Source: Pacificibacter maritimus (GTDB lineage: Bacteria > Pseudomonadota > Alphaproteobacteria > Rhodobacterales > Rhodobacteraceae). From it: a stretch of 32,000 nucleotides of DNA. Of the stretch, positions 972 through 4,654 are shown piece after piece. The stretch spans positions 418,031-450,030 of the forward strand of contig NZ_RKQK01000001.1 in the NCBI RefSeq assembly GCF_003814915.1, written 5' to 3'. How positions within the stretch are numbered: the stretch's first letter is position 1; each line of letters begins with the position of its first letter. The notes beneath the pieces are model-generated. The model was not told the DNA's origin. It saw nothing but the letters and a program-made list of their open reading frames with translations, and ran no database searches. The position numbers and the translations under genes are program-made.

Positions 972-1083
972 CGATCTTTGTCCTTTTGTCTTTATGCCTT
1001 GTCATGAAATGTTTTGCCCTGTGTTTCAAGGGGCTGTCACGGGTGCGCCCTTTGGTTTAGTGAAACGTAAATTGGTGCGAACT

Positions 1084-1112
1084 TTGACTTAACCAATTGA
1101 AAACATTAAATA
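1084..1112 (+). promoter_or_regulatory. Candidate sigma70-like promoter for the GTA cluster (TTGACT-N17-TAAATA)
   Basis: TTGACT at 1084-1089, a 17-nt spacer, then TAAATA at 1107-1112, about 160 nt upstream of the g1 ATG. A second TTGACT sits at 1115-1120. Called by sequence pattern only. Confidence 0.3.
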
Positions 1113-1272
1113 ACTTGACTTCTTGGGCATTTTCAGGCACTTCTAAATAGGCTAGAAGACGTGAGTGTATGATCTGGCGCAGTCTGTGGGGGTTGCGCAA
1201 ATTTGATCACTGTTACGGGGTGAGCCCGTCTCACGTCTCTCGTGCGGAGAATGCATGAGAGGCAGGTAGAAC

Positions 1273-1614: not shown

Positions 1615-2905
1615 TCTGGAAAGCCACGATCAGGGAGCGCTTTTGGCGCTCCCTTTCCTATTTGAGGCATGGGCCTTAGATCACCAGATGCCGCCCGAAG
1701 GCGATTGGCGCACATGGGTGATCATGGGCGGGCGCGGCGCAGGTAAAACACGCGCTGGATCTGAATGGGTGCGCAGCATGGTGGAAGGGTCGCGGGCCTT
1801 GGAAAAAGGGCGCGCCAAACGTGTGGCGCTTGTGGGCGAGACCTACGACCAAGCCCGTGAAGTGATGGTCTTTGGCGATAGTGGCATTCTGGCCTGTTCA
1901 CCGCCTGATCGTAGGCCGACATGGGTGGCCACGCGGCGCACGCTTGTCTGGCCCAATGGGGCTGAAGCTATGGTGTTTTCTGGAAATGATCCTGAAGCGT
2001 TGCGCGGTCCACAGTTTGATGCCGCATGGGTGGATGAATTAGCGAAATGGAAAAAACCGCGCGAAGCTTGGGATATGCTGCAATTTGGTCTGCGTTTGGG
2101 CGATAATCCGCGCCAAGTCGTTACAACGACGCCGCGCAATGTGGGGATTTTAAAAGAAATCCTAGAACTTGCCTCAAGCACCGTGACCCGCGCCCCGACA
2201 GAAGCAAATGCAGCCAATCTGGCGCCGTCATTCTTGGAAGAAGTGCGGATGCGCTACGCAGGCACGCGCCTTGGTCGACAAGAATTGGACGGGGTTTTGC
2301 TTGAGGAAGAAGAGGGCGCTTTGTGGTCTTTGCAGCAGCTTGAAGAAAACCGTGCGGACAAGCTGCCAGACTTTGATCGCATCGTTGTGGCTGTTGATCC
2401 GCCTGTCACCGCGCATGCTGGATCAGACGAATGTGGGATTGTCGTTGTGGGCGCCGTGACCCAAGGCCCGCCACAAGATTGGTGCGCTTACGTGTTGGAA
2501 GATGCGACCATGTCGGCTGCAAAGCCCACCGCTTGGGCAAAAGGCGCGATTGACGCATTGGAACGCTGGGAAGCCGATAAAATCGTGGCAGAAGTCAATC
2601 AAGGCGGTGATTTGGTAGAAAGTGTGATTCGTCAGGTGGATGCTTTGGTGCCCTATAAATCTGTGCGCGCCACGCGGGGGAAATCAGCGCGGGCCGAACC
2701 TGTGGCCGCATTGTACGACCAAGGGCGCGTGCGTCACAGTCGCGGATTGGGCGCATTGGAAGATCAGATGACTAAAATGACGGCGCAGGGCTATAAGGGC
2801 TCGGGATCACCAGATCGTTTGGATGCTTTGGTCTGGGCGGTACATGAGCTGATGATTGCGCCTGCGGCCAGTCACAAACGCCCACGGATACGTACCTTAG
2901 GGTAG
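1481..2905 (+). CDS. g2: GTA g2, terminase large subunit
   Basis: Walker A motif GGRGAGKTRAG, plus the WVDELAKW and VVTTTP motifs and a C-terminal nuclease region (VAVDPP...DECGIVV). The start is uncertain. The longest ORF starts at TTG 1481 / ATG 1484 and overlaps g1 by about 130 nt. TTG at 1559 is an alternative. Confidence 0.9.
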   Translation: MMTTDENSTLRLQTAPSTLTQHGLRSLIAWIASEDRAVQIQFLNDLESHDQGALLALPFLFEAWALDHQMPPEGDWRTWVIMGGRGAGKTRAGSEWVRSMVEGSRALEKGRAKRVALVGETYDQAREVMVFGDSGILACSPPDRRPTWVATRRTLVWPNGAEAMVFSGNDPEALRGPQFDAAWVDELAKWKKPREAWDMLQFGLRLGDNPRQVVTTTPRNVGILKEILELASSTVTRAPTEANAANLAPSFLEEVRMRYAGTRLGRQELDGVLLEEEEGALWSLQQLEENRADKLPDFDRIVVAVDPPVTAHAGSDECGIVVVGAVTQGPPQDWCAYVLEDATMSAAKPTAWAKGAIDALERWEADKIVAEVNQGGDLVESVIRQVDALVPYKSVRATRGKSARAEPVAALYDQGRVRHSRGLGALEDQMTKMTAQGYKGSGSPDRLDALVWAVHELMIAPAASHKRPRIRTLG

Positions 2906-2933
2906 GCATATTTCGAAAGTATTCCTGAATTGG

Positions 2934-2980
2934 CGGCCTCGGTTTGTCACGCAAGTGGTGAACTGGGGCCGTTTTTTATT
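2934..2980 (+). terminator. Strong rho-independent terminator immediately after g2
   Basis: CGGCCTCGGTT (2934-2944) pairs with AACTGGGGCCG (2961-2971). The helix extends through G-U pairs to CAC/GTG and is capped by a GCAA tetraloop (2951-2954). TTTTTT follows at 2972-2977. Confidence 0.7.
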
Positions 2981-3394
2981 GGTGTACATACAGTATATGA
3001 CCGAGCTCAACTTTGATTTTCTTCCATTATACTGTTGTAAATCAATACCTTAATTGTGGGTGTTGCGTGGTCAAAGCTGCACAGAACGCTCTGCTAGTAA
3101 GTTCTTTTAACCTATCCCTTAAAACTCATTCTACCGAAGGCGAACAGACAGCAGCCCTGCTGCAGTGGATCGCAAACGGTCACAAGTTTTGGGAAGGCGC
3201 GGGCACCGCGGCGGGCTGAGATGCGCGATAAGCGGATCATGCTCCCTTTCCAGACCCTTGGGTGGCCCCATGCGAGAGGGCCCCCAAGGGTCGAAGTTTG
3301 AACAGTGAGCCATGCGGCTTTGGGGCTTGCCCGAAGGTGCATTTGCGAGATGCCGATGGGGCATCGTTGGACAGTTTTGAGGAGAGACACGGAT

Positions 3395-4654
3395 ATGGTG
3401 TTTGACTTTATGAAGCGCGGCGCCGCAGCGCAGCCCGAGGTAAAAGCCTCAGCAACAGGGCCAGCGGTCGCCTACTCAAGCGCAGGTCGTGTGGCATGGA
3501 GCCCCCGCGATACAGTCACTTTGACCCGTGTGGGGTTTAGCGGCAATCCAGTGGGTTTTCGGTCGGTCAAGTTGATCGCAGAAGCCGCAAGTGCCTTGCC
3601 TTTGATCTTGCAAAATGCCGATGCGCGTTTTGAAAAACATCCGCTTTTGTCTGTGATTTCACGTCCAAACCCTGTTCAGGGTCGCAGCGATTTGTTTGAG
3701 GCGCTTTATGCGCAGATCTTGTTGTCGGGCAACGGATATTTGGAAGCTGTCGGCGAATGGGGCCAAGTGCCTGCGGAATTGCATGTGCTGCGCTCTGATC
3801 GCATGAGCTTGGTGCCTGGTGCAGATGGCTGGCCCATTGCCTATGAATATGCGGTTGGCAATCGTAAGCATCGTTTTCACGTCGAAGATGGCCATTCTCC
3901 CGTGTGTCACATCAAATCTTTCCATCCCAGCGATGACCATTATGGGTTGTCGCCGATCCAAGCGGCGGCCACGGCGATTGACGTGCATAATTCTGCATCG
4001 CGCTGGTCCAAGGGGCTGCTTGATAATGCAGCGCGTCCTTCAGGTGCGATTGTGTATAGCGGTTCTGATGGTCAAGGCACGATGACGGCGGATCAATATG
4101 ATCGCTTGTTGATGGAAATGGAAAGCAATCACCAAGGTGCGCGCAATGCAGGGCGTCCGATGTTGCTAGAGGGTGGTTTGGATTGGAAACCGATGGGGTT
4201 CAGCCCCTCTGATATGGAATTCCAAAAAACCAAAGAAGCCGCCGCACGTGACATTGCACTGGCCTTTGGCGTGCCGCCCATGTTGTTGGGTATTCCAGGT
4301 GACGCGACCTATGGCAATTACCAAGAAGCAAACCGCGCGTTTTACCGTCTGACGGTGCTGCCTTTGGTGCAAAAAGTTGCAGGCTCTGTCGGGCATTGGT
4401 TGTCTGAAATGACGGGCGAGGCAGTCGAGTTAAAACCCGATCTGGATCAGGTTTCTGCCCTTGCACCTGAACGAGATGCCCAGTGGAATCGTGTGGCCAA
4501 GGCTGACTTTCTGACGGCTGATGAAAAACGCGCCATGTTGGGATTGCCGCCGTTGAGTGCCCAAGCGCAGGCCGAAGTTTTTGACGATGTTTCATCACTG
4601 GAAGCGTCGATAGATGATGTGGATACCCAAACTGAGGAGACGCCAGATGCGTAA
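3395..4654 (+). CDS. g3: GTA g3, HK97-family portal protein
   Basis: 419 aa from ATG 3395, with GGAGAG at 3381-3386. Portal-like segments include YEYAVGNRKHRF, GLSPIQAAA and FGVPPMLLGIPGDATYGNYQEANRAFY. The ORF track extends to 3305, but that stretch has no RBS. Confidence 0.9.
   Translation: MVFDFMKRGAAAQPEVKASATGPAVAYSSAGRVAWSPRDTVTLTRVGFSGNPVGFRSVKLIAEAASALPLILQNADARFEKHPLLSVISRPNPVQGRSDLFEALYAQILLSGNGYLEAVGEWGQVPAELHVLRSDRMSLVPGADGWPIAYEYAVGNRKHRFHVEDGHSPVCHIKSFHPSDDHYGLSPIQAAATAIDVHNSASRWSKGLLDNAARPSGAIVYSGSDGQGTMTADQYDRLLMEMESNHQGARNAGRPMLLEGGLDWKPMGFSPSDMEFQKTKEAAARDIALAFGVPPMLLGIPGDATYGNYQEANRAFYRLTVLPLVQKVAGSVGHWLSEMTGEAVELKPDLDQVSALAPERDAQWNRVAKADFLTADEKRAMLGLPPLSAQAQAEVFDDVSSLEASIDDVDTQTEETPDA

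Follow-up and report, generated by a model that had tools for sequence, protein, structure and literature searches.

The window, that is, the whole 32,000-nucleotide stretch of Pacificibacter maritimus DNA analysed here, carries a GTA cluster of the RcGTA type in which Pfam matches identify TerL (1481-2905; Terminase_6N/6C, stop codon TAG at 2903-2905), the portal protein (3395-4654; Phage_portal, E 1.5e-88, ATG at 3395), the prohead protease and an HK97-type capsid protein. The portal protein is 91% identical to its counterpart in Pacificibacter marinus DSM 25228. The GTDB genus of the source genome also takes in Celeribacter species, and "genus" in the counts below refers to this Pacificibacter/Celeribacter group. 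A terL-portal spacer was found in all 24 same-genus genomes examined, with lengths of 154-1034 nt. In the window it leads from a terminator (2932-2977) through an AT-rich linker into a GC-rich structured stretch that includes the hairpin at 3253-3292, and the spacer as a whole folds with a z score of -5.05. The terminator, the AT-rich stretch and the GC-rich hairpin described in the first-pass annotation were all recovered by computation. The features of the spacer, all on the + strand, are the following.

2932-2977, + strand: intrinsic terminator after terL, with a 19-pair stem, a GCAA loop and a T6 run
2978-3057, + strand: AT-rich linker confined to the closest relatives, with an exact IHF consensus WATCAANNNNTTR at 3040-3052
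3058-3146, + strand: conserved, unstructured, non-coding motif of ~90 nt, seen in 24/24 genus genomes
3060-3089, + strand: two-part box, with Box 1 GTGTTGCGT at 3060-3068 and Box 2 at 3080-3089
3091-3146, + strand: C/U-rich, G-poor half of the motif, with two -10-like TA.AAC words; predicted partner of the portal ribosome-binding site
3179-3302, + strand: predicted structured leader module, with a three-way junction at 3190-3252 and hairpin H4 at 3253-3292
3312-3365, + strand: two further leader hairpins, 3312-3342 and 3349-3365 (GAUGCC/GGCAUC)
3380-3397, + strand: portal Shine-Dalgarno (SD) sequence AGGAGAGA at 3380-3387 and ATG start at 3395

Terminator and AT-rich linker downstream of terL

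The terminator begins 27 nt past the terL stop codon. Its stem (2932-2973) comprises 19 pairs including G-U, 9 of which are G-C, and encloses the GCAA loop at 2951-2954; the T6 run follows directly at 2972-2977. The calculated fold has -28.3 kcal/mol (z -4.2; 1 of 200 shuffles equally good), and the site ranks first among the terminator-like sites in 18 kb. A G+C-rich hairpin with a U run, located on the sense strand past a stop codon, identifies the element as an intrinsic (Rho-independent) terminator, in agreement with the first-pass annotation, which had placed a strong one right after the TerL stop. Its accompanying premise, that a GTA cluster is normally a single operon free of internal terminators, is outdated, as the CcGTA cluster of Caulobacter has a terminator at the same terL-portal junction (PMC11150451).

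A simple hairpin-plus-T-run finder applied to 94 Rhodobacterales terL-portal spacers returned a sense-strand terminator in 44 of 94, compared with 9 of 94 for the antisense strand. Within the genus the respective counts were 19 of 26 spacers and 6, and among the other Rhodobacterales 25 of 68 and 3. The terminator hairpins of the genus fall into at least five unrelated sequence types, all sited just past the terL stop; the long hairpin of the window has homologues with altered stem sequence in P. marinus and in two MAGs. At the level of sequence, such changing hairpins at one place look like terminator turnover with retention of function. Most relatives retain the terminator position while its hairpin sequence changes, and this speaks for a function of the element. 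Four genomes (G016, G018, G007 and G019) have no terminator in this spacer, hence termination at the junction is frequent but dispensable.

A recurring cassette was seen in other Rhodobacterales spacers (L104, L106, L110, L112, L116, L117, L119 and L125-L127), whose hosts include Paracoccus, Tateyamaria, Marinosulfonomonas and others. It comprises, in order, a hairpin, GTATTT-N5-8-AAGAAGAAG, and a terminator hairpin with a T run directly before the portal ribosome-binding site, and may represent a repeated intergenic element.

The G+C content falls to 0.38-0.41 over 2951-3100 as compared with ~0.54 in the flanks, which bears out the AT-rich stretch that had been described by hand count. The linker is absent from the four terminator-free genomes. 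The IHF consensus within it, a predicted site only, is an exact match located 5 nt upstream of the conserved motif, and just 4 matches to this consensus occur in the 32-kb window. The pattern lies at an offset of -22 from GTTGCG in both the window and P. marinus, with the two copies differing only at degenerate positions; it was not found next to the motif in other relatives.

Conserved motif and the box shared with the gafA-like gene

Alignment of the g2-g3 junction, which the first-pass annotation had proposed for Rhodobacterales, showed within the genus that the motif is kept in 24/24 genomes, invariably downstream of the terminator position and with almost fixed spacing; the structured module further downstream was found in 10 of 33. 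The motif consensus reads GGTGTTGCGY-N12-CAGCGCACGC-CTGCTCAGAACTTCTTTTA-CCTCTCC-TTTAGAAC-..-TTTCACCGACGGCGCGG. Over the ~70 alignment columns and 24 species the sole indel is one 1-nt gap (G002), and a 12-nt segment of fixed length but freely varying sequence separates invariant blocks; columns T65, A66, A68, A69 and C70 are invariant. No consensus RNA structure was found in the motif alignment, and the window copy folds worse than 200 of 200 shuffles (z +2.3). In the terminator-free genomes the motif starts 5-18 nt past the terL stop. The source genome (3.08 Mb) contains a single significant copy (E 7e-18). Outside the genus only marginal matches were obtained, the best in a Loktanella-like MAG (E 0.006), and word counts likewise gave no broad conservation of the motif beyond the genus. 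Fixed geometry, variable filler and lack of structure typify promoters and protein-binding sites in DNA. Together with the presence in 24/24 genomes, the single copy and a reading frame that is broken in relatives (see below), they make the motif look like a DNA site and unlike an RNA structure or a gene.

The two-part box, GTGTTGCGY-N13/14-GCG(A/C)ACG(G/C), makes up the 5' half of the motif; its Box 2 is degenerate in the window (CACAGAACGC versus the consensus CAGCGCACGC). In the 3' half, G makes up 14% of the C/U-rich block, which carries TAGTAA at 3095-3100 and TAAAAC at 3120-3125, the TA.AAC words being 24 nt apart. The TTGCGY of the box lies 24-27 nt from the first TA.AAC-like word. A consensus scan of 2906-3394 on either strand found no sigma-70-type -35/-10 pair (TTGACA-like and TATAAT-like, 16-18 nt apart). 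Therefore, an internal promoter would have to be non-canonical or activator-dependent.

Several other identities were considered for this region and rejected. Resemblance to an rRNA boxA is too weak, with agreement at 7 of 12 positions between the rrn leader GCTCTTTGACAT and the motif GTTCTTTTAACC. By eye, the window has TTAA-N8-TTAA, without conservation, where a CtrA box would read TTAA-N7-TTAAC, and the spacing of 19-20 seen here does not fit the LexA direct repeat GAAC-N7-GAAC. Pairing of Box 1 with Box 2 into an RNA hairpin would involve only 4 pairs and lacks covariation. Separately, the rRNA operon leader of the source genome (G000:C7 1-480) was seen to carry a putative rrn promoter TTGCGG-N17-TAGAAC, a C-rich discriminator and a boxA-like TGCTCTTTGACAT, which can serve as local standards for promoter words.

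The source genome encodes a GafA-like protein of 398 amino acids with an N-terminal HTH and a C-terminal DUF6456 domain (E 5e-57), a domain content that matches the architecture described for GafA. A search via the DnaA C-terminal family yielded DnaA itself only, and the gene was recovered through DUF6456; it was detected in 33/33 genus genomes, and Caulobacter was matched in the control search as well. Upstream of the gafA-like gene, at -235 to -292, the box recurs as GTGTTGCGY-N14-GCGAACGG in 27 of the 29 genus genomes checked, in the orientation of the portal-side box, its spacer being longer by 1 nt. In G003 and G043 the region before gafA is matched by the motif HMM with E 3e-5, and the match reaches as far as TTTTAC and TTTAAC. 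Of the 124 copies of GTGTTGCGY in the source genome all but 8 fall within long ORFs, and 2 of these 8 are the portal-side site and the gafA-side site; the chance of finding the word upstream of the gafA-like gene is ~0.005. No further copies with both boxes were found in this genome, and the genes that follow the other six intergenic sites, none of which has Box 2, are housekeeping genes or unknown, uppS/cdsA and a MacB-like gene among them. Thus, as expected for a shared operator, the same two-part sequence stands in the same orientation before the portal gene (24/24) and before gafA (27/29), and the same factor probably controls both sites. The gafA site and the g3 site are not alike in the geometry 3' of the box. 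The gafA-side box sits in an intergenic region common to a divergent DUF6477 gene (97-aa protein), and hence its target gene there is ambiguous.

The same gafA-DUF6477 intergenic region (L137:480-740; G000:C1 ~529030-529290) also contains ATTGTTTCC twice as direct repeats and once inverted as GGAAACAAT, and a CtrA-like TTAACCTTTGGGTAAC site is located ~130-150 nt before the gafA-like start. Both the repeats and the CtrA-like site are conserved across the genus.

The two-part box was not found upstream of g1. Pairwise local alignments of the motif with the g1 upstream region were not significant, an HMM of the g1 upstream region gave no match to the terL-portal spacers, and the motif HMM gave only marginal matches to a few g1 regions (best E 0.006), so that a motif-like element there was rejected. 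A sigma-54 -24/-12 pattern upstream of g1 was likewise dismissed by eye, as its spacing is wrong. The g1 upstream region carries other conserved elements, namely GCTAGAAGACGTGGG, CCTGAGGGGG and an SD-sequestering hairpin. As GafA would be expected to act upstream of g1, the missing box is the main weakness in naming GafA as the factor.

Two conserved architectures of the g1 upstream region (window 1060-1200; loci L032-L055) were observed in the genus. Type A reads GTTAAC..ATTGAAAAC..AACTTGACTT-N28-GCTAGAAGACGTGGG and type B reads GGTTAACGC-N13-GCCGCGCGCCGG-TTTTAACCAATTTTAC-N25-GCTGGAAGACGTGGG, and both then carry the invariant CCTGAGGGGG. The g1 Shine-Dalgarno sequence GAGAGG lies in the 3' arm of a hairpin, GTCTCTCGTGC / GCATGAGAGGC (window 1215-1262; g1 ATG at 1273), which is maintained genus-wide with G-U and compensatory variation. 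Given this conserved hairpin, the leaders of both g1 and the portal gene appear to sequester the Shine-Dalgarno sequence.

In six Celeribacter-type genomes an ORF of ~165-190 amino acids occupies the opposite strand between the terminator and the motif. Its product is a predicted membrane protein with two transmembrane segments that belongs to no Pfam family and occurs in two sequence types, copies being 15-36% identical. Examples are given below.

L009:2259-2747, L010:965-1462, L011:1844-2386, L013:636-1145 and L025:1851-2432, - strand: spacer ORFs of Celeribacter

Such an insertion would make simple read-through from g2 awkward, and transcription seems to call for a start signal further downstream, past the ORF.

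Predicted structured leader of the portal gene

The ~250-nt leader that extends from the motif to the portal ATG aligns throughout between the window and seven relatives. Its most stable element, H4 (3253-3292), folds with -32.9 kcal/mol and z -5.0 (0 of 200 shuffles as good), which substantiates the very stable GC-rich hairpin reported earlier at about 3254-3291, and it forms in 8/8 aligned sequences with compensatory stem changes. The hairpin at 3349-3365 is kept in 8 relatives with G-U/A-U variation only. The small helices near the portal ribosome-binding site had been described as mutually exclusive; 3312-3342 and 3349-3365 coexist in the minimum-energy fold. In the consensus structure of the leader 88% of the cells pair, compared with at most 56% when partners are slid. 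Double-sided changes occur in 7 cells, a number reached by 5 of 500 shuffles and drawn from only 8 related sequences. A covariance model of the leader module (R1) finds exactly one copy in each of the 10 genus genomes that carry it, the match in the source genome being 3179-3302, and other species of the genus have different structured inserts between the same conserved ends.

The sequence GAGGAGAGACACGGATATGGTG at the portal start is near-invariant in most of the genus. For ~14 of 24 species, partition-function folds of the 24 leaders predict pairing between the portal Shine-Dalgarno sequence and the C/U-rich half of the motif, and the mean unpaired probability of the Shine-Dalgarno sequence is 0.19 versus 0.31 with shuffled upstream sequence, a modest difference among species that are related and not independent.

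The portal leaders of several Celeribacter species (L009, L011, L013 and L016) contain two to three tandem-like repeats of the word GTTTGAG(A/C). One copy, AGTTTGAAC / GTTTTGAGG, also occurs in the window, at 3295-3303 and 3374-3382.

Interpretation and comparison with known systems

The reading that we favour, and to which we assign about an even chance of being correct, is that the spacer consists of a terminator, followed by a regulator-dependent internal promoter or operator and then by a structured 5' leader for g3-g15. The terminator at 2932-2977 would end, or strongly attenuate, transcripts arriving from the g1 promoter. The motif at 3058-3146 would act on the DNA level as the internal promoter or operator, and GafA itself would be the most likely candidate for the factor that acts on both the portal-side and the gafA-side boxes. 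Transcription from the motif would then proceed through its C/U-rich half and the ~250-nt leader with its three-way junction and hairpins, and the predicted pairing of the C/U-rich start of this leader with the portal Shine-Dalgarno sequence, for which support is modest, would add translational restraint. As judged from sequence comparison, the GTA cluster is thus probably run as two separately controlled units, g1-g2 (terminase) and g3-g15 (particle). The outcome would be a separate dosing of terminase and structural proteins and an extra layer of safety on a lethal programme. Three roles had been offered in the first-pass annotation: separate or attenuated expression of g1-g2 and g3-g15, an internal promoter with a structured leader, and an unannotated sRNA. 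The second fits the comparative evidence best because of the fixed-geometry motif that shares its box with gafA, the opposite-strand insertions in Celeribacter and the conserved leader; a free-standing sRNA is not supported.

A more specific version of this proposal is put forward tentatively, as it is doubtful that all of its parts will hold. In this version the nucleotides recognised by GafA, or by a partner repressor, would be those of the two-part box, which would mark a so far unrecognised second, internal GTA promoter before the portal gene, such that GTAs of the roseobacter group would be organised as two regulated units. The TA.AAC repeats and the C/U-rich leader would constitute a Q-like loading or pause site combined with an anti-Shine-Dalgarno lock.

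The principal alternative, which we consider somewhat unlikely, retains a single operon in which all transcription starts upstream of g1. GafA, a fused homologue of the Caulobacter proteins GafY and GafZ, would modify RNA polymerase so that it passes the terminator at which basal polymerases stop, and the motif and leader would act on the RNA level only, by control of portal translation, as a Rho-loading or Rho-blocking tract, or as processing or stability signals. This alternative draws on the Caulobacter terminator at the same terL (gtaT)-portal (gtaP) junction, which GafZ overcomes in concert with NusA, NusG and NusE, and on the suggestion of the same authors that GafA acts likewise (PMC11150451); a BaGTA preprint proposes that antitermination is general for alphaproteobacterial GTAs (bioRxiv 10.1101/2024.11.20.624540). 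It is consistent with the GafA-like gene encoded in the source genome, the widespread terminators at the terL-portal junction, the C/U-rich, G-poor and unstructured 3' half of the motif, which resembles a Rho-loading or protein-binding RNA tract, and the predicted pairing with the portal Shine-Dalgarno sequence. However, the motif is equally conserved where no terminator needs to be bypassed, events on the RNA level can hardly account for its constant spacing around a variable sequence or for the box in common with the gafA upstream DNA, and in several species genes on the opposite strand have been inserted upstream of the motif. The two models are compatible, as a GafA-loaded polymerase could start, or be re-licensed, at the internal site.

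Three further explanations compete less well with the internal promoter or operator and its structured leader. It is improbable that the motif and the structured region form an independent small RNA or a riboswitch-like sensor with no promoter role. The single-copy three-way junction and hairpin are conserved with some compensatory changes, in a spacer with an overall z of -5; but the Rfam search that the first-pass annotation had proposed (Rfam 15 covariance models, 2700-3600, both strands) gave 0 matches at E up to 10, the module is restricted to a minority of genus genomes with other inserts at the same place elsewhere, the covariation is modest, and the module is not followed by a terminator and runs straight into the portal ribosome-binding site. 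Evolutionary debris, that is, a scar of gene insertions and deletions where these are tolerated, whose terminator would be a fortuitous remnant of an inserted gene, is very improbable: it would account for the variable length of the spacer, the extra ORF of some species and an AT-rich linker present only in close relatives, but not for the invariant position and spacing of the motif across the genus, the replacement of terminators by unrelated ones at the same place or the conserved leader structure. A small protein encoded in the spacer, e.g., by 3013-3219 (+), is an extremely improbable explanation, since the peptides that are similar in several species where the frame through the motif is open owe this similarity to nucleotide conservation, and substitutions show no synonymous bias, no start codon is conserved, 1-nt indels in G008, G019, G021 and G002 shift the frame, and downstream parts differ; as had been judged at first reading, this ORF and that at 3112-3390 (-) are of low quality, without a Pfam match and with frames that 1-nt indels interrupt in relatives.

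GTA production kills the producing cell, which makes the switching-on of the ~15-kb cluster a central question. Termination and antitermination between terminase and portal have been shown only in Caulobacter and merely suggested for the Rhodobacterales, and the present locus adds comparative evidence that terminators at this junction are common in the latter order. Reports of internal GTA terminators appear to be limited to Caulobacter and Bartonella, and the frequency of such terminators in the Rhodobacterales, the box common to gafA and the portal gene, and the conserved leader appear to be undescribed. The two-part box is a specific DNA target open to mutation, by which the sequence recognised by GafA, or by a partner, could be mapped. 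If the internal promoter is real, the separate dosing of terminase and particle proteins would change the design of reporters and induction experiments for marine roseobacter GTAs.

In the Rhodobacter puf operon, intercistronic hairpins confer segmental mRNA stability by protecting upstream segments. By analogy, stable hairpins between the genes of the GTA cluster could set different upstream and downstream levels. In contrast to the terminator described here, the puf hairpins lack a full terminator U run, and such a mechanism leaves the conserved unstructured motif unexplained.

GafA of R. capsulatus binds its own promoter and the GTA structural-gene promoter on fragments that contain a -35 element (Fogg 2019, PMC6363796; Sherlock and Fogg 2022, PMC9638019). 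Similarly, in the present genome the region before gafA and a site at the GTA structural genes have in common a box with a -35-like TTGCGY. In R. capsulatus, by contrast, the structural-gene site lies upstream of g1, with none reported between g2 and g3, and the GafA-binding fragments have not been narrowed down to single nucleotides; the box is a candidate GafA site.

In lambdoid late control (PR'-tR' with Q, Q21) and in BaGTA with BrrG (bioRxiv 10.1101/2024.11.20.624540), a promoter-proximal DNA element loads the factor that enables passage through terminators, and these loading sites require a -10-like repeat in the initially transcribed region. The two TA.AAC words, 24 nt apart and 3' of the two-part box, are reminiscent of the -10 element and -10-like pause element at Q-type loading sites, although this is a resemblance only. 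Unlike the Q-type and BrrG arrangements, the terminator here is located upstream of the motif rather than downstream, and the downstream hairpins have no U runs.

The closest parallel is the CcGTA of Caulobacter crescentus, in which terGTA lies between gtaT (large terminase) and gtaP (portal), activation depends on GafYZ and IHF, and GafZ mediates antitermination (Tran and Le 2024, PMC11150451). There, IHF acts as a co-activator of the GTA promoter and binds, in addition, within the terL-portal interval (PMC11150451). The CcGTA terminator comprises three 150-bp GC-rich direct repeats, with gtaQS in the gap, whereas a single canonical hairpin with a U run is found here; the opposite-strand ORFs of Celeribacter recall by their position the extra gtaQS genes at the same junction. 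For CcGTA no second promoter has been reported and the GafZ-binding palindrome lies inside the upstream promoter, in contrast to the box shared with gafA, which is located downstream of the terminator in the window. As in clusters gated by a GafZ/Q-type factor, a GafA-family gene is present and a terminator separates terminase from portal, read-through itself being predicted only. Thus, the two homologous clusters have in common a terminator at the same junction, a GafA/GafYZ-family gene elsewhere in the genome, IHF-type sites, and a lethal programme that would be gated by termination.
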